NCBI GenBank assembly: GCA_035280845.1
Contig: DATEFB010000017.1
Coordinates: forward strand, 1-61,871
Direction: 5' to 3'
DNA from: Candidatus Saccharimonadales bacterium
GTDB lineage: Bacteria > Patescibacteriota > Saccharimonadia > Saccharimonadales > EFPC-124
DNA: 61,871 nt
In this document: piece by piece, positions 8,922-22,695 of the stretch
Position numbering within the stretch: position 1 is the first letter of the stretch
Layout of the letters: each line of letters starts with the position of its first letter
Position numbers and translations under genes: made by a program
Notes under the pieces: generated by a model
What the model saw: the letters and a program-made list of their open reading frames with translations, nothing else
Databases searched by the model: none
What the model was told of the DNA's origin: nothing

Positions 8922-9836
8922 CTAGTTCTGGTGGTATTCGCTGATGGTACAGAAGCCCGTCGGGTTTTTATCGCACGCACCTACTTCTTCGAATTCGCTG
9001 CCATTGTATTTTTGGAACTCAATTGCCGCTGTTGCATTCGGCGTGTTTTTAATGAGCATGACAATGGTGGCTTCATTGGTATTCAGGTGCTCGGGCGATA
9101 GCGTCTCGGAATGCGCAAGCGCCTCGCCCGTGGCGCGGTAGGCGTATCCAACATGGTCGCCAACTTTCAGGTCGCTTAGCCGCAACGCGTCGGCCTTGTA
9201 GTAGATTTGCACGGCAGGGTCAATGCTGTTGAACGTCTTTGTGACGCGCTTTAGCTCCATGCCAATTGGGATGTCGGCCTCGAGCGTAATGCTGCTTGGG
9301 CTGATCGCTGTAATGGTGCTATCAATATATCCGCCCACGACACCGTTTCCTACGTGTTTAAGTTTTTGCTGCAGCACATCGGCTTGCGCATCCTGCTCAC
9401 AGTTACCAAGTACCATTTGCGTGACTTGCTCGTTGGTGAACTTGGACTCTTTTTTAATCAGGAAGTAGCGTGGTCCGCCGCGTTGGTCTTGCGGCTTAAG
9501 AATGGTGAAGGCGTTCGTCGTATGACAGTTAGTAGTCTCTACTTTTACGATGCGGCCGTTGGGCATTTGTTGTTCGCCACCAAACATTGCCGAGATATTT
9601 GGCCAGTTTACAACTGCTGCATATGCCGTGCCGCTGAGTGCCAGAGCGACAACAATGCCGGCCACGGCCATTGCGGGTTTATCGAGAAGTTTCATAAGTA
9701 GTTCCTTTGGGCTCAAGCGCCACCGGGGGCGTGGATGGGCCGAAATGTGGTCAGTTACAGTTTGTGTAAAGTCTGTGCGCAGCTGGCGCCGTGGCCTGGC
9801 GTTGCCAGCGCTGCGTAATTGCGTGTCCATATTCAT
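8922..9836 (-). CDS. putative anti-sigma factor / membrane-anchored extracytoplasmic protein
   Basis: Start trimmed to MNMDTQ. Its ATG overlaps the sigma-factor stop (ATGA). One TM (AMAVAGIVVALALSGTAYAAV) is followed by a roughly 220-aa external domain. Confidence 0.5.
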   Translation of the reverse strand: MNMDTQLRSAGNARPRRQLRTDFTQTVTDHISAHPRPRWRLSPKELLMKLLDKPAMAVAGIVVALALSGTAYAAVVNWPNISAMFGGEQQMPNGRIVKVETTNCHTTNAFTILKPQDQRGGPRYFLIKKESKFTNEQVTQMVLGNCEQDAQADVLQQKLKHVGNGVVGGYIDSTITAISPSSITLEADIPIGMELKRVTKTFNSIDPAVQIYYKADALRLSDLKVGDHVGYAYRATGEALAHSETLSPEHLNTNEATIVMLIKNTPNATAAIEFQKYNGSEFEEVGACDKNPTGFCTISEYHQN

Positions 9837-10357
9837 GACAACTCCTTTTTTAGATTTTGCTTTGCCCGCGCCATCCAAACTTTTACCGAACCTGTGGGCG
9901 CGGCAAGTACGGTGGCGATTTCTTGGTAGCTTAAGCCCTGCCAGTAGTACAAGCTGATGACACTGCGGTATTTTGGTCGGAGCCGAGCGACTGCGTCGTG
10001 CAATTCCTGCATTTCGGCCAGGTGGTCGGGCTGCGGATGGGGCGACGCAATGCTGGCGATCAACTCGTCGTCGGCAGCGGTTTCTTTGGCGGCTTTTCTA
10101 AGCCAGCTAAGGGCCTTGTTGGTGGCAATTTTAAAGAGCCAGGTGCTCAGGCGGTAGTGCGAATCATATGACCGCAATTTGTAATACGCCGTGATAAACG
10201 TATCCTGGGCAATGTCTTCGGCTGCGTCTTCGTTGCGCACAATGGCAAAACAGTGATGATACAAAGCGTTTTTATAACGGTCGACCAGTTGGGCATACGC
10301 CTCGTGGTCGGCGTTTAAGCTGCGAGCAATCAGCTCGTGTTCGTCTTTGTTTTGCAT
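9833..10357 (-). CDS. ECF-type RNA polymerase sigma factor (sigma-70 family)
   Basis: 174 aa. Region 2 is AEDIAQDTFITAYYKL..STWLFKIATNKA. Region 4 HTH is LSYQEIATVLAAPTGSVKVWMARAK. Confidence 0.9.
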   Translation of the reverse strand: MQNKDEHELIARSLNADHEAYAQLVDRYKNALYHHCFAIVRNEDAAEDIAQDTFITAYYKLRSYDSHYRLSTWLFKIATNKALSWLRKAAKETAADDELIASIASPHPQPDHLAEMQELHDAVARLRPKYRSVISLYYWQGLSYQEIATVLAAPTGSVKVWMARAKQNLKKELS

Positions 10358-10364
10358 ATCCTAC

Positions 10365-11345
10365 TTACGCATCGGAACCAGGAAAAGTTACAGTGCCGCC
10401 ACGTTTTATGGCGTCGCGTCCAAAACGCGAGATCCGATGCTCTTCAATTGCCGACCGCCAATCTTCCTTATGCTCATCCCAAGTCGAAAGTTTAATGAGC
10501 ATATTTGCCGTGAGCGTATCAAGCGTGGCTGTTTTGTTTGGGCTGTTTTCTTCCAGAATGTAGTCGGCGGTTTTGTTGAGCAGGCAGTCTAATGATCGGC
10601 CGGGCTTGCAGGGTGTGGGGCTGTAGGGGCAGACATGCAGGTCAAGGTCGCCATAAATCATGGCGATGTAATCAAAGTAGTCGTGGCGGTCGGTAGCGTT
10701 GTTAAGCCGGGTCTTGATTTGGGTCGGTTGTACGATTGGATCTTCGCCAAATGTATCGATGTACAAGTAGTCGTGGTTGTCGGCTGCAATACCAAAGTTG
10801 TCTTGCAGGGCAAGGCTGGGAATGAGTGTAATGTTCGGATGCCGCAGGCGGGCAATGAGTGTGCCGGCAATCAGCTCGGTGGCACGGCCGCGTAGCTCGC
10901 CCAACGTCTTGGTATCGGCGCGCATGTCACGGGAGCGCGCAAACTGGCTTCGAACGTCGCCAAGGAGCGCTAAATAGCTGCCGTAGATGCCTTCGCGGTG
11001 AAAGGCGGTATTTTCGCCCCTGCGTGCTGCATCAAAGTATTGGAGGAACGGTATCATCTCGCGGCCCCAGGTTGATTCAACAAAGCCCGATTCTTTGAAC
11101 CGGCCGGTATACAACTGCTCAAACCTCGCCTGGAAAAGCGCCTGCCGCCGCATGGCTGGGTTTGCTGCAGTGTCGAGGGCTTGTCGGGCGAGCTGCCGCT
11201 CCAGCTTTGCTTTGCCGACCAGTGGTGTGGCGTCATGAATTGGGAATCGATCGACAAAATGGAGCCAAAGCTCACCAGCAAGTGCCTGATCATGATCTCG
11301 GGTAAGGGGATGGGGTCGCCATAATTCAGCCATAGGACGCTCCAT
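10365..11345 (-). CDS. hypothetical protein, first gene of the ECF sigma operon
   Basis: 326 aa, no family recognised, ends 7 nt before the sigma gene. The segment ELIAG..DYLYID..VQPTQIKT loosely resembles a PD-(D/E)xK core (speculative). Confidence 0.5.
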   Translation of the reverse strand: MERPMAELWRPHPLTRDHDQALAGELWLHFVDRFPIHDATPLVGKAKLERQLARQALDTAANPAMRRQALFQARFEQLYTGRFKESGFVESTWGREMIPFLQYFDAARRGENTAFHREGIYGSYLALLGDVRSQFARSRDMRADTKTLGELRGRATELIAGTLIARLRHPNITLIPSLALQDNFGIAADNHDYLYIDTFGEDPIVQPTQIKTRLNNATDRHDYFDYIAMIYGDLDLHVCPYSPTPCKPGRSLDCLLNKTADYILEENSPNKTATLDTLTANMLIKLSTWDEHKEDWRSAIEEHRISRFGRDAIKRGGTVTFPGSDA

Positions 11346-11458: not shown

Positions 11459-12565
11459 ATGACCAAGAAACTATTGCGCCGCCGGCGTTTAGCCCTGCTT
11501 TTACCCGGCCATAACGAAGAATTGATTATCGCAACGACCATTCGGTCGGCAGTTGCTGCCGGCCAGCCTCTTGAAGATATCTACGTGGTAGACGACGCTT
11601 CCAGCGACCGAACTCGCCAGGAAGCTATTAAAATGCTGCCCGCCGAGAACATTTTAACGGTGGAACACAGCGGTAAGGCCATGGCTGTTAAAAAAGCTAT
11701 CGCATACTTTAAGATCGAGCAGCGGTACGTCTGGCTGCACGTTGCCGACGCCGACAGCGTATTTGGCCCGGACTACTTCCGCATTTACCGCAGTAAGCTA
11801 CAAGGCCGCGAATATGCGGTAGCTGTTGGTTTTGTGCAGAGTCTTCGCGGTAACTGGATCTCGCGCTACCGTGCCTTTTGTTACACCTACAGCCAACATG
11901 TTATGCGCCGGTTGCAGGCTGCCTTCGGCATGATCTCGGTATTTCCGGGGCCAATCACCTGTTTTCGGACCGACATTATAAAGCACCTGGACTTCGTAAG
12001 CGACAGCTTTACCGAAGACTTTGATATTACCTTGCAGGTGCATCGCAAAAAACTAGGCAGGATCCGGTTTATCCCCCGTGCCGTCAACTACACGCAGGAC
12101 CCACAGACGCTGCGTGACTTTACTAAACAAACGCTTCGCTGGCAGCGCGGGTTCTTCCAGGGTATTCTGGCGCATAAGATTGGCACAAAAGTACAACCTA
12201 TCGACATGAGCATTATGTACCAGCTCGTCGAGGTGGCAGTGTACCTGTTGCAACTTGCCGTACTGCTGCCGACCGTTGCCTTTGTGACGGGTCAATGGTG
12301 GGTCGTGGGTCTGGTATTCCTGGTAGACTTCCTGATTATGGCTGTGACGGCGCTTATCAGCTCGGCTGTGATCCGTCGTCCATCAATAATGCTGTCACTG
12401 CCGTTGTTCTACATTCTGCGCTGGGTTGAGCTTGGCGTGTTCCTGTGGGCGATGGTAGAAGTTGTGATCTTACGCAAATTCCGCACCCGCCGCGAAGTTG
12501 GTTGGAGCGTAAAGGGCCGCCGCTATCAGATTAGCGCCGACGCCCTGCAAGACGTCGCCAACTAA
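11459..12565 (+). CDS. family 2 glycosyltransferase, processive type with C-terminal TM domain
   Basis: 368 aa. Motifs are VVDDASSD, HVADADS (DxD) and QTLRWQRG (QxxRW). Three to four C-terminal TM helices. Confidence 0.8.
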   Translation: MTKKLLRRRRLALLLPGHNEELIIATTIRSAVAAGQPLEDIYVVDDASSDRTRQEAIKMLPAENILTVEHSGKAMAVKKAIAYFKIEQRYVWLHVADADSVFGPDYFRIYRSKLQGREYAVAVGFVQSLRGNWISRYRAFCYTYSQHVMRRLQAAFGMISVFPGPITCFRTDIIKHLDFVSDSFTEDFDITLQVHRKKLGRIRFIPRAVNYTQDPQTLRDFTKQTLRWQRGFFQGILAHKIGTKVQPIDMSIMYQLVEVAVYLLQLAVLLPTVAFVTGQWWVVGLVFLVDFLIMAVTALISSAVIRRPSIMLSLPLFYILRWVELGVFLWAMVEVVILRKFRTRREVGWSVKGRRYQISADALQDVAN

Positions 12566-12569
12566 GAAC

Positions 12570-12621
12570 GCTCTAATAAAAAATAACCCGCTCGCCTGAG
12601 TGGGTTATTTTTTATTAGAGC
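12570..12621. terminator. long palindromic bidirectional terminator
   Basis: GCTCTAATAAAAAATAACCCGCTC-GCCT-GAGTGGGTTATTTTTTATTAGAGC is a 24-bp stem with one mismatch. It starts 5 nt after the GT2 stop and includes the sortase stop codon. Confidence 0.75.
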
Positions 12622-13202
12622 TTTTCGACGCGCGTAAAGTCGAATGTGAATATGTGGCGGTTCTCTGACCATAGCCCTGTGCACGTTTGTAGCGTCAGTG
12701 TGGGCTTTTGAGTGGCTGCAAGCACACTTGTATCTGTTGGTGATACAACGACGCTGCTGCGAAGCGTGTACACAAAGCGCAGGCCGTTCGATGTATGGAT
12801 GGCGATCTCGGACCCTGTTTTAAGCTGTGGTAGGCGGCCAAAGACGCGGTTTGTAGCATGTCCGTATATAAATGTATTACCGGTTGTGTCATTTGGCTCT
12901 GGCGTCATGGTGCCAAACATCGCCTGTGTGTCGCTAAGGGTCCAGCTACCATCGGCGGCATTGTATTGGCCGTCAATGACTCCGAGGCTGATACCTAGGC
13001 TGGGAACGCCAATATGCGTCGGATGCCCGTGCGTTACCGCTGGAGCGGGTACTGGAGCAGTAACAGTGGTCGCAGTGGTACTTGCCGTATTGGCAACTGC
13101 CTCGGCGATTGACCGTTGTTGCACAAATGCCGGGGTAATAACAGCAAGGCTGGCGAGCACGCCAACTCCGGCGGTTGCGGCAATATATTTAAGCTTGATC
13201 AT
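12615..13202 (-). CDS. sortase family transpeptidase
   Basis: 195 aa with an N-terminal anchor, catalytic His (FIYGH), the TLQTCTG Cys motif and a downstream Arg. Confidence 0.85.
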   Translation of the reverse strand: MIKLKYIAATAGVGVLASLAVITPAFVQQRSIAEAVANTASTTATTVTAPVPAPAVTHGHPTHIGVPSLGISLGVIDGQYNAADGSWTLSDTQAMFGTMTPEPNDTTGNTFIYGHATNRVFGRLPQLKTGSEIAIHTSNGLRFVYTLRSSVVVSPTDTSVLAATQKPTLTLQTCTGLWSENRHIFTFDFTRVEKL

Positions 13203-13224
13203 AATAATGTCCTTAAAACGTGGT

Positions 13225-13247
13225 GCGCCCCCGGCAAGCGGGGGCGC
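13225..13247 (-). terminator. terminator/attenuator hairpin between the LPNTG mini-gene and the sortase
   Basis: GCGCCCCCG-5 nt-CGGGGGCGC, a 9-bp stem. On the minus strand it is followed by ACCACGTTTT and then the sortase SD (AAGGA). Confidence 0.6.
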
Positions 13248-13256
13248 GAAAGGTGA

Positions 13257-13442
13257 TTAAACCTTAGCAGCGGCACGGCGCTTTGCAGCGGCTACAGTTG
13301 TAGCGACCAGTGCGGTAAGGCTAACCGTCAGTACAACCAATGCAGCGATAAACAGTGGGCGGAATGCGCCAGTGTTTGGCAGAACAGCCAAGGTGGCTGC
13401 ACTTGGTACGACGGTGCTAGCAGCAAGTACTTGACCTGACAT
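13257..13442 (-). CDS. 61-aa LPNTG sorting-signal mini-protein (putative sortase substrate)
   Basis: MSGQVLAASTVVPSAATLAV-LPNTG-hydrophobic stretch-KRRAAAKV. GGGAG SD with a 6-nt spacer. Lies immediately upstream of the sortase on the same strand. Confidence 0.65.
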   Translation of the reverse strand: MSGQVLAASTVVPSAATLAVLPNTGAFRPLFIAALVVLTVSLTALVATTVAAAKRRAAAKV

Positions 13443-13664
13443 AGCTAACTCCCTTTATGGTTTGTATAGAACTAGACATTTCGCGTCTAAAGGCCTTTCG
13501 GCCCAGAAAGGCGCACCTCACTAATTCTTATGCGCAGAATAACACTTTTATGATCTTTTGTAAAGTATATTTAATAATATGCTTATGCTCAATAAGTTAG
13601 TGTTGTTAATTTTATTGACGTTACAAAGAATTATTCTGTACAACTACTGAAGTGTGTCGGTAAA

Positions 13665-16600
13665 ATGATCGTAATGGAAACGCAGCCGCCACAAGGCACC
13701 AAACCCAATCTAGAGCACCTAAGGATTGTTGAAGATGTGCTAGGCGTGCCCCTCTTGCCAGAGCAGATTATGGGCATACCTGTGGATGACGGCTCGATCA
13801 GGAGTTTTGCGTACGATTCGGTTGTGCGCGCGCTGGATGCACGGACTGGCAATAGGCCGGGGCGTGGCCTGGCAGAGGGCGCCGCGCACGACCTAAGAGA
13901 AGACGGGCGCTTTCGTCGGCTTGCTGCCGAAGTGCAGGCGGCCAACGATACGCTCGTGAATTGGCACATACCCCCGGCTATGCCTGTCGATGCCGATACG
14001 CTAGAGACTGCGCGTGGCCGTTTTCAGTCCCGGGCTATGCAGGCGGTGGTAGAGCATGCTCAGCGCTCGCCGTCTGCTGTCGGGCCAGATGATAGTCCGT
14101 ACCGCAATGGACTACTCACCATGGCGCCGCCCGGGGCTGGCAAAACCGTCCTGCAGGCGCTGGCCGTCAATTACGCTGGCGTCGGCTTACCAATAAGCGA
14201 ATCTGACCCCCGCCGAAGAACCGGTGTCGGCATTCTAAACAGCCGGCTGCTCATACGTCAGGGGCTCGACGAAGACGAGACGCTGCAGCGTTTCACGAAA
14301 GCCGGTGACCGCGACATGCGCATCGGCGCGTACTTTAATGATCGCCGTGACGGGCATGATGAATACGATTTGTTGCTAACCACCCCGCGCTCATACGAAA
14401 AAGCGGTCAAAAGTGGTGCCATCAATCCCGAAACCACAGTACGTTATTTGTTGGATGAAGCTCACCGGGTTGCACTCGCCCCTGGAATGCAGAAACATAT
14501 GACCGAGTTTGATTCGGGCTTGTATATGTTTACGGCCACACCGGCAATTGCGGGAGGGCGGCGTGATTTGCGCAGACAATTCCCGCATTCCCAATTCGGC
14601 TCGTTACGGGAGTTTGTGGAGGACGGCATTTTAAGCCCCGTCCAATTGTTTACGTACCGTGCAGGCCCAGAGGCAGAGTCGGCGGGACGGCTGGCGGTTG
14701 GCCTGGCCGCGGACTACGTAAAAAGCGGGCGCAAAACCTTGGTCGTGTGTCAGCCTGGTGAGCATATAAAGCAGGCGCGGGATATTGCCCGGCAGCTCAA
14801 TACAATGCATGAACGGGGCGCTATTACACCACATGAACGTTTCGGCTTCGACGGCAACGAGATAGCATGCGCCATCGGCACATACCCAGGCTCTACGCCC
14901 GCAGAAGACATTGCCCGGTTCCGCGCTGGCGAACGACTTATTGCCACGACTGTCGCGACTGGCAACGAGGGCATGAACATTGCCGATCTGGATGCATTAA
15001 TTATTATTGGCCCGCAAGGTGCAACATGGGTGGTTGAGCAGTGGCTTGGCCGGATTCTGCGCCCCAGCGGCCGTTTGGCGGTAGCCTCAGAAATTTTGCC
15101 GCACGACCTGCGCGAGGGCCGGCCGCTCGCCTCTATCTTTGGTCCCTTTGGCTTGCACGACGAGGTAATTACCGCCGGGTATTACATTGGGCCATCACTC
15201 ATAACCGACGAGCTGCCCGAGCCAGGGGCTGGCAATGTACGTCTTACGCCACCAGGTCGTGAAAGGGTGGTGCAAACACCGTCTGAGTTTTCTGAGATTT
15301 CTGGTCGCCCCCTCGACACATCGGAATTTTTAGAACATAGCGCCTCCTCGAGCACCGGCCTGGCATTTTCTGATGGGTATCGCCCGCCTGCCGAGCTCGA
15401 GCCTTCGCTTGTAGCCGGTATTTCTGTGCGTGAAGCAACGATTGCTCCAGCCGATATGCTCAAAGCACCGCCGCCTGAATACGCACCGCTAACAGGGATC
15501 GCGCCTGAAGGCGTAGAGCTTGAATGGTTATATGCAATGATGGACAAGCTCGATGACCCTGCAATCCGCTACATTGGCGTGTGGGAGCCAGATGCCATGG
15601 GTGAGATGCAGTATTTGCGGTATTATTCGCCAGCCGCGCACACGTATTTTGATACCCATCCAATACCCGAGCTTGTTGGCGAGCAGGAATTCTTGGACGA
15701 AGAAATTGCCCGCATGCTTAACGTCTCACGCAAATTTGTGCGGAGCGTGCTAGACGGCAATGGTATCAAACCTCTGAACCGTATTACCAAGTATCACCGC
15801 AACCCCAATTATTACGGCCTCGATACGTATGCGCTGGTCGCGGCTGAAGTGGCCAAGATTCCCTTTGCTGAAGAGTCAGATGTTGCTGTTACGGACCTTG
15901 GCCGCGATATAAGCATTGATTTTATCCGGGGGTACATAAACCGTGGCGAAATAGTCGCGACGTATAAACGCAGGCACCCCACGTGGGGTGTTGTTGGCAC
16001 TGCCCAGCATATTTCGAGCCAGGACGCAGACATGTTGGTGGCCGGTTATAAGTCGCTTGAAGTTGCTGATCTTTCTCAGTTTGTCGGGTTTACCGAGATC
16101 GCTCGGATTGCGGGCGTGGCTATTTCGTCGGTTCTAAATAAGTGGAACGCACTGCCGGAAGCAGAGCGCCCGCCAACGCGGTGGCTGCGTTCTGCGCCAA
16201 AAGTCCGTCCCGCCCAATTTGTTGACAGGGCGTGGGGCGAGGCGTTTGCAGAAGTGCTCAAGCCAGAGAAGGTTTTACCTTGGGAAGCGACGCTCAGCAT
16301 GATTGCGCTGTACTTTGGCAAGCAAAAGCTCAACATGGGCAACATCATTAAGCGTCGGGATACACCCGAACCTGTGAATATCCCCTTGCCAGGCGTGAGC
16401 GAAACAAAAGTGTATCCAATGTCGGTCATTCTTGACTTGCGGCGTGAAGGCATGCCGGCCGCGCCAGACGCACCGCCAATTATTGCGTCACTGGTAGCGC
16501 TTGCACCCGAGGATGTCGCGGATGCTGCCAAGGTAGCGGCGAGCCAGAATATCCAAAAGTATTACATTTCCAAAGAACAGCTAGCCCGGCCTGATGAGAT

Positions 16601-17099
16601 TGGCTATTATGCTGGACGCCGTACGTCCCCGCCACAGTTGCCTTTGCCGTTTGCCGAAAAGCCAAGCGAGCCGGAAGTTGCCGAATCGCTGCCCGAACCT
16701 GATCCATTCCACACACTTGCCAGCGTCCGGCAGCAGTTTGGATGCACGCCGCATGCCTTTACGATCCTCATGCAACGGGCCGAGCTACCTGAGGACGAAA
16801 TCGTAATGGACGGCAATACTGTGATTGGTATTCGCGAGGGCGGGTTTGCGGCGCTCGATAGGCTCGCGGCCCGTATCGCCATTGCCCCGTCCGGTTGGGC
16901 CAGCCTGCCGATGGTTGGGCACGCTGCGGCGCGAAGCACTAAAGATGCTGTCATGGCGGCCCTTGCGCGGATAGAGCACAGGCGTGGATATGCCGCCAGT
17001 GAGGAGGAAGTGCTGCTATGCCGCAATGATTCAGAGGTAGAGCTATACTTCTCAGTGCCCATGAAGCGCGCAATCAGGCACGAGGTGATAGATGGATAG
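13665..17099 (+). CDS. large SF2 (DEAH, ResIII-like) helicase with a roughly 650-aa C-terminal extension containing HTH-like repeats
   Basis: 1144 aa. Motif I APPGAGKT, motif II LLDEAHR, motif III FTATP, motif V TVATGNEGMNI, motif VI QWLGRILR. The C-terminal tail has several excisionase/MerR-like HTH-looking segments. G+C is visibly above backbone but below the islands. Confidence 0.8.
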   Translation: MIVMETQPPQGTKPNLEHLRIVEDVLGVPLLPEQIMGIPVDDGSIRSFAYDSVVRALDARTGNRPGRGLAEGAAHDLREDGRFRRLAAEVQAANDTLVNWHIPPAMPVDADTLETARGRFQSRAMQAVVEHAQRSPSAVGPDDSPYRNGLLTMAPPGAGKTVLQALAVNYAGVGLPISESDPRRRTGVGILNSRLLIRQGLDEDETLQRFTKAGDRDMRIGAYFNDRRDGHDEYDLLLTTPRSYEKAVKSGAINPETTVRYLLDEAHRVALAPGMQKHMTEFDSGLYMFTATPAIAGGRRDLRRQFPHSQFGSLREFVEDGILSPVQLFTYRAGPEAESAGRLAVGLAADYVKSGRKTLVVCQPGEHIKQARDIARQLNTMHERGAITPHERFGFDGNEIACAIGTYPGSTPAEDIARFRAGERLIATTVATGNEGMNIADLDALIIIGPQGATWVVEQWLGRILRPSGRLAVASEILPHDLREGRPLASIFGPFGLHDEVITAGYYIGPSLITDELPEPGAGNVRLTPPGRERVVQTPSEFSEISGRPLDTSEFLEHSASSSTGLAFSDGYRPPAELEPSLVAGISVREATIAPADMLKAPPPEYAPLTGIAPEGVELEWLYAMMDKLDDPAIRYIGVWEPDAMGEMQYLRYYSPAAHTYFDTHPIPELVGEQEFLDEEIARMLNVSRKFVRSVLDGNGIKPLNRITKYHRNPNYYGLDTYALVAAEVAKIPFAEESDVAVTDLGRDISIDFIRGYINRGEIVATYKRRHPTWGVVGTAQHISSQDADMLVAGYKSLEVADLSQFVGFTEIARIAGVAISSVLNKWNALPEAERPPTRWLRSAPKVRPAQFVDRAWGEAFAEVLKPEKVLPWEATLSMIALYFGKQKLNMGNIIKRRDTPEPVNIPLPGVSETKVYPMSVILDLRREGMPAAPDAPPIIASLVALAPEDVADAAKVAASQNIQKYYISKEQLARPDEIGYYAGRRTSPPQLPLPFAEKPSEPEVAESLPEPDPFHTLASVRQQFGCTPHAFTILMQRAELPEDEIVMDGNTVIGIREGGFAALDRLAARIAIAPSGWASLPMVGHAAARSTKDAVMAALARIEHRRGYAASEEEVLLCRNDSEVELYFSVPMKRAIRHEVIDG

Positions 17100-17152: not shown

Positions 17153-18850
17153 ATGGCAAAGAAAATACTGGTTGGAATTGCTGTAGCACTCATTGGCCTT
17201 ATCGCGGCGTTTTTTGTGACGCAATCAACCCACGCGCCAGGCGTGAACTTAATTACAAACCCCTCGTTCGAAGAGCGGGCAGGTGACCAGCCTAAAGATT
17301 GGCAGCAAAATGCCTGGGGCGCTAATTCGCCCAGCTTTGCGTACGTTACAAACGAGGGCCGCACTGGCACCCATAGCGCCCGCGTAACACTGGCCGACTA
17401 CAAAGACGGCGACGGCAAATGGTTCGCCAAATCTGTTGTATTGCAAGCTGGCAAGCGTTATGCCTACAGCGATTACTACAAATCTGACGTCGCTACCGAA
17501 TTATTGGTGCAATTTCAGGATGCGTCGGGCCAAACGTCGTACTTTAAGCTTGCAGACGTGCCTGCAGCTGCCAAGTGGAAGCAGGTTGAGGCGACGTTTG
17601 TTGCGCCCGCCAACCTAAAAGGTGCAACTGTTTTGCATCTGCTTAAGGCTACTGGTACATTGCAGATCGATGACGCATACCTCGGCGCTACCAAGCAGGT
17701 TGTTACACCCAACGAACCACATGTGAACGCCAACCTGGTCATAAATACTTCTGCCGAAATTACAGCCGCAGGCCAGCCAAAAGATTGGTACGGCAGTGGT
17801 TGGGGCGAACATACCCGCACTCATACTTTTGCAGCTGAGGGCCGTACGGGCAACCGCAGCCTGAAGACCGAAGTGAAAGACTTTGCGGGCGGCTCTGCGC
17901 AGTGGGAATTTGCGCCTCAGAACGTAACACCCGGTCAGGTGTACCAATATGGCGATTACTACAAAGCTGATGCGCCTACCGAAATTAACATTGTGTATTA
18001 CATGGCCGACGGCGGCACGAAGCACCAATACCTTGGCACTGCACAGCCAAGCTCTGACTGGTTGCATTTTTGGCACACATTTACAGTGCCCGAGGGCGCT
18101 ACAAAAGCGACGGTCCAGCATTTACTGCATTCCAACGGTACGCTCAGCATTGACGACGTGACCTTCGGTCCGTTCCGCGAAGTCGGGTTTGACCGCGCCA
18201 TAATAAGCCTGACATTCGACGATGCATGGCGCTCGATTCACGCAAACGCTTTTCCTATTCTTAAAAAGTACGGGCTTACCAGCACGCAGTACTTGCTTAG
18301 CGGCAAGAGCAACGAGCCCGAATATATGACCACCGACATGATGAAAGAGTTCAAGAATAGCGGCCACGAGATTGCTGCCCATACCATTGACCACGCCGAC
18401 CTTACCAAGATCGACACCACCAATCTGCGCCGCCAGCTGGTCGAAAGCAAATCATGGTTTACGAACGCCGTTGGCGTGACGCCGGTTAACTTTGCAACGC
18501 CGTATGGCGCCTACAACTCAGACGTCATTGGATTCGTAAAGCAAAACTACCGTTCGCACCGCAGTGTCGAAACCGGCTACAATGGCAAAGATAACTTCGA
18601 TATTTACAATATCCGCGTGCAAAACATTACCAACCAGACAACTCCGGCCGAAGTTGCGTCGTGGATTGCCAAAGCTGAATCAGACCGTACCTGGCTGGTT
18701 ATTGTGTACCATCAGGTTGATGAAAACCCTGGCGAATTTGGCACCACTCCAAAAAATTTCGACTCACAAATGGCAACGCTCAAAGCTATGAATTTGCCTG
18801 TTCTTACCGTTAATGCTGCGCTCGACGAAATCGCTAAGCAGTTAAAATAG
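17153..18850 (+). CDS. secreted polysaccharide deacetylase (NodB fold) with two N-terminal CBM4/9-like modules
   Basis: 565 aa with a signal anchor. Two repeats begin NL(I/V)(T/I)N(P/T)SxE. NodB motifs are LTFDDAWRS and AAHTIDHADL. Confidence 0.8.
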   Translation: MAKKILVGIAVALIGLIAAFFVTQSTHAPGVNLITNPSFEERAGDQPKDWQQNAWGANSPSFAYVTNEGRTGTHSARVTLADYKDGDGKWFAKSVVLQAGKRYAYSDYYKSDVATELLVQFQDASGQTSYFKLADVPAAAKWKQVEATFVAPANLKGATVLHLLKATGTLQIDDAYLGATKQVVTPNEPHVNANLVINTSAEITAAGQPKDWYGSGWGEHTRTHTFAAEGRTGNRSLKTEVKDFAGGSAQWEFAPQNVTPGQVYQYGDYYKADAPTEINIVYYMADGGTKHQYLGTAQPSSDWLHFWHTFTVPEGATKATVQHLLHSNGTLSIDDVTFGPFREVGFDRAIISLTFDDAWRSIHANAFPILKKYGLTSTQYLLSGKSNEPEYMTTDMMKEFKNSGHEIAAHTIDHADLTKIDTTNLRRQLVESKSWFTNAVGVTPVNFATPYGAYNSDVIGFVKQNYRSHRSVETGYNGKDNFDIYNIRVQNITNQTTPAEVASWIAKAESDRTWLVIVYHQVDENPGEFGTTPKNFDSQMATLKAMNLPVLTVNAALDEIAKQLK

Positions 18851-18874
18851 TCTCAGCAAAGATTCAGCTTATCT

Positions 18875-18883
18875 TGGTATAGT
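18875..18883 (+). promoter_or_regulatory. extended -10 box (TGGTATAGT), leaderless-type promoter
   Basis: TGGTATAGT ends 8 nt before the ATG at 18892. No SD is possible in that space. Confidence 0.55.
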
Positions 18884-18891
18884 GAGCCAAT

Positions 18892-19566
18892 ATGCGAGTA
18901 CTAATTGTCGAAGATGAGCGGAAAATTGCCAACGCCCTAAAGCGCGGCCTGGAGCAAGAATCATTTGCTGTTGACGTTAGTTTTGATGGCGACGATGGCC
19001 TGGCTATGGCGCTGGACGAACCCTACGATGTTATTGTGTTGGATCGTATGTTGCCGGGTACGGACGGTTTGAGCCTGTGCAAGCAAGTCCGCGAGGCGGG
19101 CAAGCAGGTGCCAATTATTATGCTGACTGCAAAAGACGCCATTGGTGATCGGGTTGCCGGTTTGAATAGCGGCGCAGACGATTATCTGATTAAGCCGTTT
19201 GCCTTCGAAGAGTTACTCGCCCGGATCCGCAGCCTTTTGCGCCGTCCGGCACAAGTTATATCGCCGGTGCTTGCTTGTGATGACCTGACTATGAACACCC
19301 AAACCTTCGAGGTTCGACGCAGTGATACGCAGGTTGCATTAACAAGCAAAGAGTTTGCGCTGCTGGAGTACCTGCTGCGTAACCAGGGCAAGGTGCTTAC
19401 AAAAGACACTATTATTGGCCATGTGTGGGACTACGATGCCGACATTCTGCCTAATACAGTCGAGGTATATATTAGCTACCTGCGCAATAAAATTGACCGT
19501 GCGTTCCCTGACCGGCCCGGACTTGTGCATACAATGCGCGGTTTTGGCTATAAACTGGGAGTGTAA
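18892..19566 (+). CDS. OmpR-family response regulator
   Basis: 224 aa with a receiver domain (VIVLDRMLPGTDG) and a winged-helix output domain (VEVYISYLRNKID..RGFGYKL). Confidence 0.9.
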   Translation: MRVLIVEDERKIANALKRGLEQESFAVDVSFDGDDGLAMALDEPYDVIVLDRMLPGTDGLSLCKQVREAGKQVPIIMLTAKDAIGDRVAGLNSGADDYLIKPFAFEELLARIRSLLRRPAQVISPVLACDDLTMNTQTFEVRRSDTQVALTSKEFALLEYLLRNQGKVLTKDTIIGHVWDYDADILPNTVEVYISYLRNKIDRAFPDRPGLVHTMRGFGYKLGV

Positions 19567-20564
19567 TGTTTAAAAGCGCCTCAATACGGCTCGCAGCTTG
19601 GTACGTTGCTATTTTAATGGCGATGAGCCTTGCTTTTAGCGTGTGGGTATACCGCGAAGCCACGAACGAGCTGCGCATGGGCATTGGCGCCCCGTTTGTT
19701 ATAAAGCTACAGGACCGGTTGGGCCGGATTTCAGAGAGTGAAGTCCAGGCGCTCATGGAAGTCCAATACGCAGATAGTCAGCGCCGGATTTTATTTAACC
19801 TTATGCTGCTCAACGCCGGCGTATTTGCAGTGGGCGCACTGGCAAGTTATGTGTTGGCACGGCGGACTTTGCGTCCAATCGAAGAGGCGCTCGAGGCCCA
19901 AAACCGTTTTACGGCTGATGCCTCGCACGAACTCCGCACGCCGCTTGCCGCCATGAAGACCGAGATCGAAGTTGCAATCCGCGACCCCAAGCTCAGTAAA
20001 GATGACATGCGCGAGCTGCTGCAAAGTAACCTGGAAGAGATTGACCGCATGAGCGGCCTTGCCCAAGGGTTGCTAACGCTCGCCCGATCAGGTGAAGACC
20101 CGCACGTAAAACCGGTCATGGCACAGGAAATCGTGCACGATGTTTTAGCGCGCATGCAGCCGCTTGCCGATGCTAAAAAAATCACTATTAAAACTGACCT
20201 GGCAAATATGCGGGTGTTGGGTGATGCTAAAAGTATCGATGCAATCGTGTGTATTTTGCTGGATAACGCTATAAAATACAGCCCACAAAAATCTACCATT
20301 ACGGTGAGTATTTCGCGCGAAGATAGCCACGGGCACATAGCAATTGCCGACCAAGGCCCTGGCATTAGCGCCGAAGCCCTGCCGCATGTGTTTGACCGTT
20401 TTTACCGCGCCGATAGCTCGCGCACTAAAGAGAACGTGGCCGGTCATGGGCTTGGCCTTTCCATTGCACAAAAGCTCGTGCGCGCCATTGGCGGCACTAT
20501 TCGCGCACAGAGCGCCGAGGGCCAGGGCTCGACCTTTACGCTTCGTTTGCCAATCGTGCAATAA
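19566..20564 (+). CDS. sensor histidine kinase
   Basis: 332 aa with two TM segments, H-box ADASHELRTPL, and HATPase G-box GHGLGLSIA. TAATG overlap with the regulator gene. Confidence 0.9.
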   Translation: MFKSASIRLAAWYVAILMAMSLAFSVWVYREATNELRMGIGAPFVIKLQDRLGRISESEVQALMEVQYADSQRRILFNLMLLNAGVFAVGALASYVLARRTLRPIEEALEAQNRFTADASHELRTPLAAMKTEIEVAIRDPKLSKDDMRELLQSNLEEIDRMSGLAQGLLTLARSGEDPHVKPVMAQEIVHDVLARMQPLADAKKITIKTDLANMRVLGDAKSIDAIVCILLDNAIKYSPQKSTITVSISREDSHGHIAIADQGPGISAEALPHVFDRFYRADSSRTKENVAGHGLGLSIAQKLVRAIGGTIRAQSAEGQGSTFTLRLPIVQ

Positions 20565-20633
20565 CATTTTTCGCATTTCAACTTCCTTTAAGCTTTGTAG
20601 GTTTTACTACAGGGTGTAAACAAGGAAAAATCT

Positions 20634-22019
20634 ATGAGTGTAGTAGTGCGAGGCGCTAAAAACGCCTTCCGCAACTGGCTGCGTACGGGCGCGGTGGTGC
20701 TGATTTTGGCAATCGGCATTGGGCTTGCCTTAAGTATGCTGGTCGCCAAGCAGGCGGTCGAGGCCCGTATAAGTGACCTGCAGGCGCAAGTGGGGACCAC
20801 TTTGCTAGTGAACCCGGCAGGGTCGAAGGACATGATGGGCGGGGGCGAGCCGCTTAAGACGACAGATGTTGATGCGATTAAAAGTGTGGCCCACGTGACG
20901 TCGGCCGACGCAATGGTCAACCTAGCGCTGCAAACCGAGGGCGCCGAGACTGACGGCATCCGGATGCGCGGTGGTGAAGAGCCCGGTAAGACAAACCTGA
21001 AGTCGTCGATCGATGCCGGTACGCTCGGCAAGCGATTTAGCGGTACGGCAAACTCTGCAGGGGAAGTTCCTGCAACGATTTCGCTACCAATCCGTGCGCT
21101 TGGCACAAACGCCAACCGGGTTGAGGATGGGACGGCGCTCAAGATTACCGAAGGGCGTGCCTTGGCGGCCGACGATACGCTGTCGGCGTTGGTGGGCAAA
21201 GACCTGGCCGAAAAGAACAGCCTGAAGATTGGCTCGACCTTCACGGCTTATGGTCAAACATTCGCTGTGGTTGGCATTTTTGACCAAGGCACCAAATTCG
21301 CAAACGATATGATCGTTCTACCCCTTGCTAAAGCGCAAGAATTAAGTGGCCAGGCGAGCGAAGTCGGTTCGATTGTTGTAACTGTTGATTCGATCGAAAA
21401 CCTGGAAGCCACCCAAACGGCTATTAAAGACAAGCTTGGGAGCGATAAGGCCGACATAACATCGACGCAGCAAAACATCCAAGAAGCAATCGGCGCGCTT
21501 AAGAGTGTCCAGCAAGTCTCGTTGATAGGGTTTATTGCAGCCGTTGCGGCAGCTTCGGTAATTACCTTCTTGATCATGTTGGTCATTGTGAGGGAGCGCA
21601 AACGCGAGATCGGTGTACTGAAAGCCATCGGCGGCTCCAACCACACAATTGTTAGCCAGTTTATTGTGGAGGCCATTGTTTTGGTGGCCATGGGTACGGT
21701 AGTTGGCCTGGGAGTTGCAATGGTGAGTAGTACGGGCATCGCGAATGCGCTGGTTTCTAATTCGACAAACGAGAGCGATAGTACAGATGCCGGCCCGCGA
21801 AGCGGCGCTGGTCCTGGACCACGCATGATCAAACTGAGCGCAAATGGCAATAGTATAGAGAACGCGACAAAACTCGTTAGCGATGTTACCGCATCGGTTG
21901 GTCCAATGACGCTGGTGTGGGGTGCGCTCGCGGCCTTGGTTATTGCGGTGGTTGGCAGTGCTGTGCCGGCGTGGCTGATTGCCAAAGTACGTCCGGCCGA
22001 AGTAATGAGGGGAGAATAA
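20634..22019 (+). CDS. ABC transporter permease, MacB/FtsX type
   Basis: 461 aa. An N-terminal TM and a large external domain are followed by three C-terminal TM segments (FtsX-like: RKREIGVLKAIGG). Confidence 0.85.
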   Translation: MSVVVRGAKNAFRNWLRTGAVVLILAIGIGLALSMLVAKQAVEARISDLQAQVGTTLLVNPAGSKDMMGGGEPLKTTDVDAIKSVAHVTSADAMVNLALQTEGAETDGIRMRGGEEPGKTNLKSSIDAGTLGKRFSGTANSAGEVPATISLPIRALGTNANRVEDGTALKITEGRALAADDTLSALVGKDLAEKNSLKIGSTFTAYGQTFAVVGIFDQGTKFANDMIVLPLAKAQELSGQASEVGSIVVTVDSIENLEATQTAIKDKLGSDKADITSTQQNIQEAIGALKSVQQVSLIGFIAAVAAASVITFLIMLVIVRERKREIGVLKAIGGSNHTIVSQFIVEAIVLVAMGTVVGLGVAMVSSTGIANALVSNSTNESDSTDAGPRSGAGPGPRMIKLSANGNSIENATKLVSDVTASVGPMTLVWGALAALVIAVVGSAVPAWLIAKVRPAEVMRGE

Positions 22020-22020
22020 T

Positions 22021-22695
22021 ATGCTTACAGTAGAACGAATACAAAAAGTCTTTCAGTCTGGCGGCAGCCCTGTGCGTGCCGTAAGCGACGTGAGCTTTAG
22101 CCTTGATTCTGGTACGTTTGCGGCCATTGTAGGCAAGAGCGGCAGCGGTAAAAGCACGTTGCTGGCGTTACTTGGCGCGCTCGACCGTCCAACAAGCGGC
22201 AGTATAAAAGTCGACGACGTTGACATTACCAAATTGAGCGACCGCAAGTTAACTGCATACCGCCGCCAGGACATTGGGTTTGTGTTCCAGCAATATAATC
22301 TGGTACCAAACTTAACGGCCGTCGAGAATGTTATGTTGCCCATGGAATTTGCGGGTGTTGGCTCGGCTGTGCGTCGCGCCAGGGCGCAGGAGTTGTTGCA
22401 GCAGGTGGGGCTCGAGGGAGCAAAGCAACAGCGTAAGCCAGCCCGACTTTCGGGTGGTGAGCAGCAGCGTGTGGCAATCGCCCGCGCTTTGGCAAACAAA
22501 CCAAAGCTGATTTTGGCCGATGAGCCAACGGGTAACCTCGACACCCAAACTGGCGAGCAGGTTTTTAGCTTGTTGCACGAACTGGCCCGCACACAGGAAG
22601 TGACGATCATAGTTGTAACCCATGACCTGTCGATCGCAGGCAAATGCGATGTTGTTTTGACCATAAAGGACGGCGTACTCACGAAAACGGTCTAA
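22021..22695 (+). CDS. ABC transporter ATP-binding protein (MacB/LolD-like)
   Basis: Walker A GKSGSGKST, signature LSGGEQQR, Walker B ILADEPTGNLD. Confidence 0.9.
   Translation: MLTVERIQKVFQSGGSPVRAVSDVSFSLDSGTFAAIVGKSGSGKSTLLALLGALDRPTSGSIKVDDVDITKLSDRKLTAYRRQDIGFVFQQYNLVPNLTAVENVMLPMEFAGVGSAVRRARAQELLQQVGLEGAKQQRKPARLSGGEQQRVAIARALANKPKLILADEPTGNLDTQTGEQVFSLLHELARTQEVTIIVVTHDLSIAGKCDVVLTIKDGVLTKTV

Follow-up and report, generated by a model that had tools for sequence, protein, structure and literature searches.

A minimal LPXTG gene upstream of a sortase in Candidatus Saccharimonadales and its association with a conserved polysaccharide gene module

The DNA analysed here, referred to as the window, is a stretch of 61,871 nucleotides from a Candidatus Saccharimonadales bacterium (assembly GCA_035280845.1, contig DATEFB010000017.1, positions 1 to 61,871). 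It carries a gene of 61 codons, here called the mini-gene, the product of which (the mini-protein) is little more than an LPNTG sorting signal, and which is followed directly by a sortase gene. The analysis suggests that what is new here is a minimal, signal-peptide-less, dedicated predicted sortase donor integrated in a polysaccharide gene module. The mini-gene, the sortase gene, the hairpin between them and their Shine-Dalgarno (SD) sequences all lie on the minus strand, which the first-pass annotation of this DNA had left unstated. The features concerned, with TM denoting transmembrane, are:

13564..13536, minus strand: promoter of the mini-gene/sortase transcript, found by promoter scan, TTTACA, 17 nt, (TG)TATTCT, TG-extended
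13443..13528, minus strand: 5' leader of the mini-gene, about 85 nt, with the conserved blocks AAGAATTAGTGAGGTGCGCC, TTAGACGCG and AAACCATAAAGGGAG, and including the SD
13449-13453, minus strand: SD of the mini-gene, GGGAG, with a 6-nt spacer to the ATG
13257..13442, minus strand: mini-LPXTG gene, 61 aa; head residues 1-20 at 13383-13442, LPNTG at 13368-13382, then the conserved FRPLFIAAL and TM helix, then the tail KRRAAAKV
13225-13247, minus strand: 9-bp GC hairpin with a 5-nt loop, arms GCGCCCCCG and CGGGGGCGC; a candidate partial terminator or 3'-end stabiliser
13211-13215, minus strand: SD of the sortase gene, AAGGA, 7 nt 5' of the ATG
12615..13202, minus strand: sortase, 195 aa, with an N-terminal TM anchor at about residues 4-28 and His115, Cys174 (LQTC) and Arg182
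11459..12565, plus strand: processive GT2 glycan synthase, 368 aa, with VDD (45-46), DAD (97-99), TED (185-187) and QTLRW (224-228)
17153..18850, plus strand: CE4 (NodB-homology) polysaccharide deacetylase, 565 aa, with an N-terminal signal or anchor and CBM_4_9 domains

Translation of 13257..13442 on the minus strand gives MSGQVLAASTVVPSAATLAVLPNTGAFRPLFIAALVVLTVSLTALVATTVAAAKRRAAAKV, identical to the 61 residues quoted by the first-pass annotation, so that its description of 20 residues before LPNTG and of a C-terminal half made up of a sorting signal stands in full. The open reading frame (ORF) is maximal, with an in-frame TAA four codons 5' of the ATG. The 20 residues that precede the motif (residues 21-25) are uncharged and residues 1-27 contain no Lys or Arg, in agreement with the earlier observation that an N-terminal signal peptide is lacking; in the Kyte-Doolittle hydropathy profile a TM-like stretch spans residues 24-54, with a maximum of 2.49 for a hydropathy window, and the basic tail comes next. 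The segment around the predicted sortase cleavage site is ...TLAVLPNTGAFRP..., in peptide form ...ATLAVLPNTGAFRPL.... The mini-protein has both the LPxTG pentapeptide and the hydrophobic segment with positively charged tail that characterise LPXTG proteins, and has neither their Sec signal peptide nor their passenger domain.

The downstream gene had been described as a sortase with its own SD, and it is a genuine sortase that is catalytically complete as judged by its residues. It matches Pfam Sortase (PF04203) with E = 1.4e-19 and 70.5 bits, its AlphaFold2 (AF2) model (predicted local distance difference test score, pLDDT, 91.3) consists of an N-terminal helix and a sortase barrel, and His115, Cys174 and Arg182 are invariant across 54 sortase relatives. 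A Foldseek search of the Protein Data Bank (PDB) with the model returned sortases for all of the top 50 matches, the top ones belonging to classes E, C, A and D. Assignment to a class by sequence or fold failed, the protein being about equidistant from these four classes; no NCBIfam class cut-off was reached, the best being SrtD (43.8 bits against 140), followed by class D (38.8/165), E (32.2/160), F (31/166), C (29.7/160) and GN (TIGR03784, 23/158).

The search of related genomes for sortase-adjacent mini-ORFs that the first-pass annotation had proposed revealed a conserved family. Searching directly with the mini-protein gave four close homologues (57-61 aa); a profile run against 1.84e9 representatives returned 41 matches, about 31 of which are mini-proteins of 37-93 aa aligned end to end, and a profile search of 5.8e9 proteins gave 113 clusters, each of 40-81 aa. 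The 136 non-identical relatives measure 37-93 aa as called and 33-66 aa when counted from the conserved start, mostly 50-66 aa, the over-long database entries having a start mis-called 5' of an internal MYG. The few members with an organism name are all from Candidatus Saccharimonadales/Saccharibacteria, and the window itself is Saccharimonadales-like, with a soil or rhizosphere origin. Among the sortase relatives (28-54% identity, from metagenomes and metagenome-assembled genomes), most have a mini-gene directly upstream, and the order mini-gene then sortase is found at every fetched locus with DNA beyond the mini-gene stop codon; recurrence upstream of sortases so distant from that of the window is more than chance. 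No other LPXTG-type ORF was found in the 62-kb window, nor in the 271 kb made up of the window and the related loci. The ratio of non-synonymous to synonymous substitution rates (dN/dS) is 0.09-0.25 for close pairs of mini-genes, and those of three related loci (related loci carry L numbers and family members P numbers; here L005/L006/L007) differ by 5-11 synonymous and 0 non-synonymous changes. Conservation of the mini-ORF, the purifying selection on it and the lack of any longer version rule out the idea of a longer frame masked by a sequencing error, and the mini-ORF is almost certainly a real gene.

The members share a common plan, comprised of an M-Y/S-G start, an uncharged head, LPxTG, a conserved TM helix and a basic tail. 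The motif [LIVMF]PxTG is present in 128 of the 136 (94%), in the versions LPNTG (71), LPATG (35), LPDTG (14), LPETG (4), LPSTG (3) and LPHTG (1), with P22, T24 and G25 close to invariant; on its C-terminal side lie a conserved (R/K)xLF, a helix whose central Gly is near-invariant, and the basic tail. The head before the motif is 7-25 residues long (median 18), rich in G/A/V/T/S in a 38-member subset, and contains 0-1 basic residues and almost no acidic ones; 46 of 128 heads are without any Lys or Arg, and Lys4 is found in 60/136 only. Tyr occupies position 2 in 117 members (Ser in 12) and Gly position 3 in 99, and the N-terminus M-Y-G-(K/Q/N), seen in P0004-P0144 and replaced by M-S-G-Q in the window lineage, is conserved far above the rest of the head.

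A search of a full-text library turned up no work dealing with the sortases or LPXTG proteins of Saccharibacteria, and the family is previously unstudied. Its database labels, where an organism is given, are 'LPXTG cell wall anchor domain-containing protein', 'DUF308 domain-containing protein' and 'hypothetical protein', and among the unattributed labels from JGI are 'hypothetical protein', 'membrane anchored protein' and, spuriously, 'predicted phage tail protein'; the last name, given to P0029, P0096, P0100 and P0103 by one source, is unsupported by sequence or context. Two members, P0124 and P0135 (L027:5001-5174), have two Cys in the head (…AGCATTVCG… and …IACSLTGTC…), which suggests a disulfide loop, and P0135, labelled DUF308 by one source, has LPDTQG in place of LPxTG.

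The expression signals of the mini-gene bear out the first-pass annotation, which had noted a strong SD (GGGAG, 6-nt spacer) and an AT-rich region of 222 bp upstream; the GC content of this region is 0.24-0.45, compared with about 0.54 for the window. The same promoter hexamers are kept in L004-L007, and the leader, aligned with its equivalents from these four loci (alignment A4), has a mean column identity of 79%. An Rfam search of 12500-13800 returned nothing near threshold, so the leader is no known riboswitch or leader, and its predicted fold is no better than that of shuffled sequences (z = -1.0). Searches of RNA runs for the window and for L022, from an abundant relative, yielded just assembled contigs of uncertain kind at a depth of 2-9, which are uninformative on expression or attenuation.

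Between the mini-gene and the sortase gene the hairpin is followed by ACCACG, UUUU (13215-13218), the sortase SD and the ATG. Folding of the 63 nt that contain it gives -21.8 kcal/mol (z = -3.1), a value reached by none of 200 shuffles (0/200). The earlier claim of a hairpin plus TTTT at 13225-13247 is thus upheld for the stem, but less so for the terminator, which the terminator scan does not call, because the U-run is just 4 nt and starts 6 nt beyond the stem. A stable hairpin lies between the two genes in 13/15 LPxTG-bearing lineages. Covariation among close relatives was dropped as support, as only one pair is doubly changed (7/9 pairs are invariant, with one G-C to A-U double change); the argument rests instead on the folding of unrelated sequences at the same place, as stem-loops are found in this position in L003, L004, L009, L010, L015, L017, L020, L024 and L027, with energies of -20 to -37 kcal/mol and z of -2.2 to -5 for the seven that were shuffle-tested. 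U-tracts lie 3' of the stems in L015, L017, L020 and L024. A promoter scan predicted none between the mini-gene and the sortase gene, and sortase expression therefore depends on read-through. As predicted from the conserved stem-loop, the layout fits an abundant substrate and a scarcer enzyme, much as the first-pass annotation had put it (an abundant subunit followed by a low-level enzyme).

Judged by gene order, the mini-gene and the sortase gene are half of a conserved four-gene module, the other half of which is formed by GT2 and CE4. GT2 is syntenic with the sortase in L001, L003, L005, L006, L009-L012, L015, L016 and L020-L028, and in nine long-contig lineages sampled GT2 is adjacent in 9/9 and CE4 in 8/9. 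CE4 is the conserved divergent neighbour of the mini-ORF, although in the window a 1144-aa gene intervenes; in L022/L023 the genes for CE4, mini-protein, sortase and GT2 are co-directional with a gap of 2 nt between sortase and GT2, the genes of which overlap in L026 and L027.

The window GT2 has the motifs of processive beta-glycan synthases (D, DxD, TED, QxxRW) and their membrane C-terminal part, the TM-like windows within residues 251-338 amounting to several C-terminal helices. It matches Pfam Glyco_trans_2_3 (5.7e-20) and, weakly, the model of an XrtG-associated glycosyltransferase (3e-9); its best NCBIfam matches stay far below the equivalog cut-off (PgaC_IcaA 79.9 against 422 bits, NodC 46 against 550), and its homologues have weak or faint Pfam matches to chitin synthase. 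A phmmer search of PDB sequences with GT2 found nothing, and its single-sequence AF2 model (pLDDT 40.7) was discarded. CE4 matches PF01522 (Polysacc_deac_1, 6.2e-25) and has TFDD354 and HTIDH410, as expected of a CE4/NodB-homology protein; its PDB relatives are chitin, peptidoglycan and xylan deacetylases, and in other loci it carries Big_7 domains instead of CBM_4_9.

In one clade (L008, L013/L030, L014, L018 and L029) the sortase is present and neither GT2 nor CE4 lies beside it. Here the mini-proteins are without LPxTG (MNSITTDSPLF..., ...IPQAGLQPLF..., MFNQGNLDPLF...), the TM helix and tail persisting, and in L014 the mini-gene is gone altogether. In L013, L029 and L030, where a surviving mini-gene has a callable start, only 4-12 nt separate it from the sortase gene and these hold no hairpin; the LPxTG-less mini-genes still have a promoter-like TTTAC(A/T)...TATAA(T/A) pair and, ahead of the start, a purine-rich stretch. 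This pattern is suggestive of LPxTG and hairpin going with the polysaccharide genes, and of TM helix and tail going with the sortase. The first-pass interpretation is supported in part, having missed both the GT2/CE4 module and the loss of LPxTG where GT2/CE4 is missing.

One clade has a second sortase-domain gene of 216-233 aa, convergent to that of the active sortase and with no counterpart in the window (L003:2788-3450, L013:2350-3000, L008:2429-3130 and L014:1638-2291, all on the minus strand; also L009/L012, L018, L029 and L030). Its product has zero Cys, and LSGY, LSAH or LSAP replaces the YGH of the catalytic His, while 57-82% identity is kept; from these sequences it is probably a pseudo-sortase.

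Taken together, these results make it probable that the mini-protein is a sortase substrate, and a tie between its role and GT2/CE4 is favoured as well, with less assurance. The complete proposal, in which the translated, single-pass mini-protein would be the dedicated donor substrate of the downstream sortase in a transfer that serves the GT2/CE4 pathway, we regard as having an even chance. The strong promoter and SD of the mini-gene, and the stem-loop before the sortase gene, would provide substrate in excess of enzyme. As there is no signal peptide and the C-terminal tail is basic, the positive-inside rule predicts a cytoplasmic C-terminus and a motif exposed at the outer face; this is the only topology compatible with the charge distribution, which favours the non-Sec insertion proposed earlier. 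By analogy with the Pf3 coat protein, the short uncharged head could be translocated by YidC-type insertion, leaving the mini-protein N-out/C-in. The membrane-anchored sortase would then cut between T24 and G25, and the thioacyl intermediate at Thr24 would be resolved by an amine, so that the 24-residue Ala/Val/Ser/Thr-rich head would be handed to an extracytoplasmic acceptor. The C-peptide G25-V61, with its conserved RPLF...G helix, would stay in the membrane, where it would probably dock on the sortase and may have a second role. A two-helix hairpin topology (N-in) was rejected as general, as heads may be as short as 7-10 residues, and so was pilin-type polymerisation via Lys in view of the 46 heads without Lys or Arg, which also makes the 'pilin-like building block' of the first-pass annotation unlikely.

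As LPxTG and hairpin are kept only where GT2/CE4 is present, the transfer reaction would serve that polysaccharide pathway, and this could be achieved in two ways. The peptide may be placed on the wall (on the stem peptide), where it would hold or organise the polymer, or, more speculatively, on the polymer's own amines after these have been freed by CE4. We consider a sugar amine an improbable acceptor for the head peptide, and the corresponding pathway, drawn by analogy with NodC/NodB/NodA but extracytoplasmic and with a peptide in place of the fatty acid, is equally improbable: GT2 would extrude a GlcNAc-type polymer, CE4 would deacetylate it outside the membrane, and the sortase would N-acylate the GlcN amines with the head of 7-25 residues. 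If true, the latter would give the Saccharibacteria an envelope polysaccharide of a new kind, decorated or cross-linked by peptides.

The donor proposal should be considered with caution, as several results weigh against it. The window mini-protein scores only 14.5 bits with PF00746 (Gram_pos_anchor), below the gathering score of 20, and no NCBIfam model matches it, although a few homologues bear a precomputed PF00746 match. The window hairpin goes uncalled by the terminator scan, there is no adjacent U-tract after the hairpin in the window or in L003/L009/L010, and the LPxTG lineages L026 and L028 have no hairpin. The conserved MYG start has no explanation under a donor-substrate model. Between two LPxTG-less mini-genes dN/dS is 0.30, at saturated dS; these genes are thus under purifying selection, and part of the function would be independent of sortase cleavage. 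Lastly, GT2/CE4 and LPxTG may have been lost in one event, which leaves the correlation at a single clade (n = 1).

Among the other explanations, one could be ordinary wall anchoring, in which the head is linked to the peptidoglycan stem peptide or lipid II to give a dense coat of short peptides and GT2/CE4 is just co-located. All housekeeping sortases that have been characterised work in this way by default, and the canonical tripartite sorting signal, the sortase fold and the full catalytic triad agree with it; we nevertheless think it rather unlikely, as it does not account for GT2 being syntenic even at a sortase identity of 28%, for sortase and GT2 being translationally coupled in L022/L026/L027, or for LPxTG having been lost, with the sortase retained, where GT2/CE4 is missing. 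That the sortase would free or reshape the head, as a secreted 24-mer after hydrolysis, by head-to-tail cyclisation, or by polymerisation after trimming to Gly3, is very improbable. A protease for the trimming is not apparent, genes for export or immunity were not seen, and the N-terminal chemistry is not uniform, since the Tyr at residue 2 of most members is Ser in the window lineage; a conserved Lys for isopeptide polymerisation is missing from the heads (46/128 having no Lys or Arg). Gly3, present in 99/136 members, speaks for this reading, as sortases accept an N-terminal glycine and can cyclise peptides in vitro.

It is also conceivable, if unlikely, that the membrane-embedded C-peptide is the functional part, either as a SafA-like partner or regulator of the sortase or GT2 or as a signal to a two-component system, with cleavage serving maturation or dosage and the head being discarded. 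For a sorting signal, the TM segment shows unusual conservation (RPLF and the mid-helix Gly), and LPxTG-less forms that begin near the cleavage site persist with promoter and SD, at the above dN/dS of 0.30 and tightly coupled to the sortase. There is also a precedent in SafA for a small TM protein guarding a sortase (PMC9282373), sensing of a C-peptide by a histidine kinase has been described in S. gordonii (PMC11326707), and a response regulator and a short-loop histidine kinase lie 3' of CE4 in the window and L004. However, retention of LPxTG in 94% of the members and conservation of the MYG start and head length would be unexpected for a discarded head, the hairpin and strong SD point to more mini-protein than enzyme, which is not the stoichiometry of a partner, and the defining features of SafA (gene downstream of srtA, N-in/C-out, FPW) are missing. 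Finally, that the mini-ORF is not a gene, being a chance ORF or a remnant of a larger LPXTG protein, is scarcely credible: its small size and sub-threshold Pfam anchor score would allow for it, but more than 130 homologues of the same size, divergence by synonymous changes only in L005/L006/L007, the conserved promoter and SD and the upstream in-frame stop do not.

Several known systems have features in common with the mini-protein. It shares LPxTG, hydrophobic helix and basic tail, and a membrane-anchored Cys-His-Arg transpeptidase encoded next door, with canonical LPXTG proteins and their sortases (S. aureus protein A/SrtA), whereas it has no Sec signal peptide or passenger, a cargo of 7-25 residues, and a TM helix that is conserved in sequence. 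As in dedicated sortase-substrate operons (SrtB-IsdC; the class GN 'marine' sortase), one sortase stands beside its own substrate; the substrates in those operons are full-size secreted proteins with signal peptides, unlike the mini-protein. The likeness to the Pf3 coat protein, a protein of 44 aa with N-out/C-in topology that is inserted by YidC only, lies in a single TM helix between a short, near-uncharged N-tail and a basic C-tail and in the lack of a signal peptide, and is an analogy only, with no sequence relation. In the Actinobacteria, safA is located downstream of srtA and encodes an N-in/C-out protein with an exoplasmic FPW motif and no LPXTG (Ramirez et al. 2022, PMC9282373). Like the mini-protein it is a single-pass membrane protein of about 50 aa that is genetically locked to a sortase, and it is the LPxTG-less mini-proteins that resemble this arrangement; the mini-gene differs in being upstream of the sortase gene and in encoding a predicted N-out/C-in protein with LPxTG and no FPW. 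Identity with SafA was accordingly rejected, as the gene is on the wrong side of the sortase gene, the predicted topology is opposite and FPW is missing.

For the polysaccharide half of the module, the closest parallels are PgaC/PgaB and IcaA/IcaB (PNAG) and NodC/NodB/NodA, in which a processive or oligomer-forming GT2 with QxxRW is likewise combined with a NodB-homology deacetylase that frees sugar amines. In the synthesis of Nod factors the freed amine is N-acylated by a third enzyme, and it is in this slot that the sortase-peptide pair could fit, peptidyl transfer to a sugar amine being hypothetical; no PgaD, IcaD or NodA homologue was identified. Short, low-complexity proteins with sorting signals that are tied to exopolysaccharide genes are also known from PEP-CTERM/exosortase systems and from the Streptomyces chaplins with the CslA glycan. 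At the cell surface chaplins, which are hydrophobic, G/A/V-rich, sortase-anchored peptides, act together with a glycan made by a GT2. Enzymes and motifs are not the same (exosortase as opposed to sortase), and chaplins have signal peptides and a chaplin domain of 40 aa; the one computed hint of a resemblance is the weak match of the window GT2 to the XrtG-associated model.

The roles ascribed to sortases are the display of full-size proteins exported by Sec and the assembly of pili, whereas the family described here would be a natural substrate pared down to its sorting signal; it is made with no signal peptide, and its conservation extends over an order of ultrasmall epibiotic bacteria the surface biology of which is almost unknown. 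The fixed association with GT2/CE4 and the joint loss of LPxTG point to a sortase-dependent step in a polysaccharide layer, possibly a peptide-sugar conjugate; the latter, if true, would extend the natural chemistry of sortases and give a handle on the surface by which Saccharibacteria contact their hosts. The LPxTG-less derivatives are a natural contrast by which the role of the head could be separated from that of the membrane peptide.

Several further features were observed around the module in the window. A stem-loop at 12590..12605, flanked by an A-run and a T-run and terminator-like on the plus strand, lies between the convergent GT2 and sortase genes and is likely a bidirectional terminator. 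The 1144-aa ORF (13665-17099, plus strand) between the mini-ORF promoter and CE4 has weak matches to Helicase_C, DEAD and HTH_17 and a GC content of 0.6-0.68 in its first 750 or so bases (profiled to 14400), compared with about 0.54 for the window; no counterpart was found in the related loci, and it looks like a lineage-specific insertion. On the other side, a 326-aa ORF (10365-11345, minus strand) without a Pfam or NCBIfam family lies between GT2 and the gene for a sigma factor of the extracytoplasmic function (ECF) type, and has no counterpart in any related locus, including the syntenic L005 and L006. The gene for this sigma factor (174 aa) and an overlapping gene for a probable anti-sigma of 318 aa with a single TM segment lie at 8922-10357 (minus strand), and are also found beside GT2 in L005 and L006 with 60-82% identity. 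From 17153 to 22695 on the plus strand CE4 is followed in order by an OmpR-type response regulator, a histidine kinase of 332 aa whose two TM-like stretches lie about 45 residues apart, a MacB/FtsX permease and an ABC ATPase, a layout that resembles an envelope-stress-type module; the order CE4, response regulator, histidine kinase recurs in L004, and FtsX/ABC genes are located near the module in L024.

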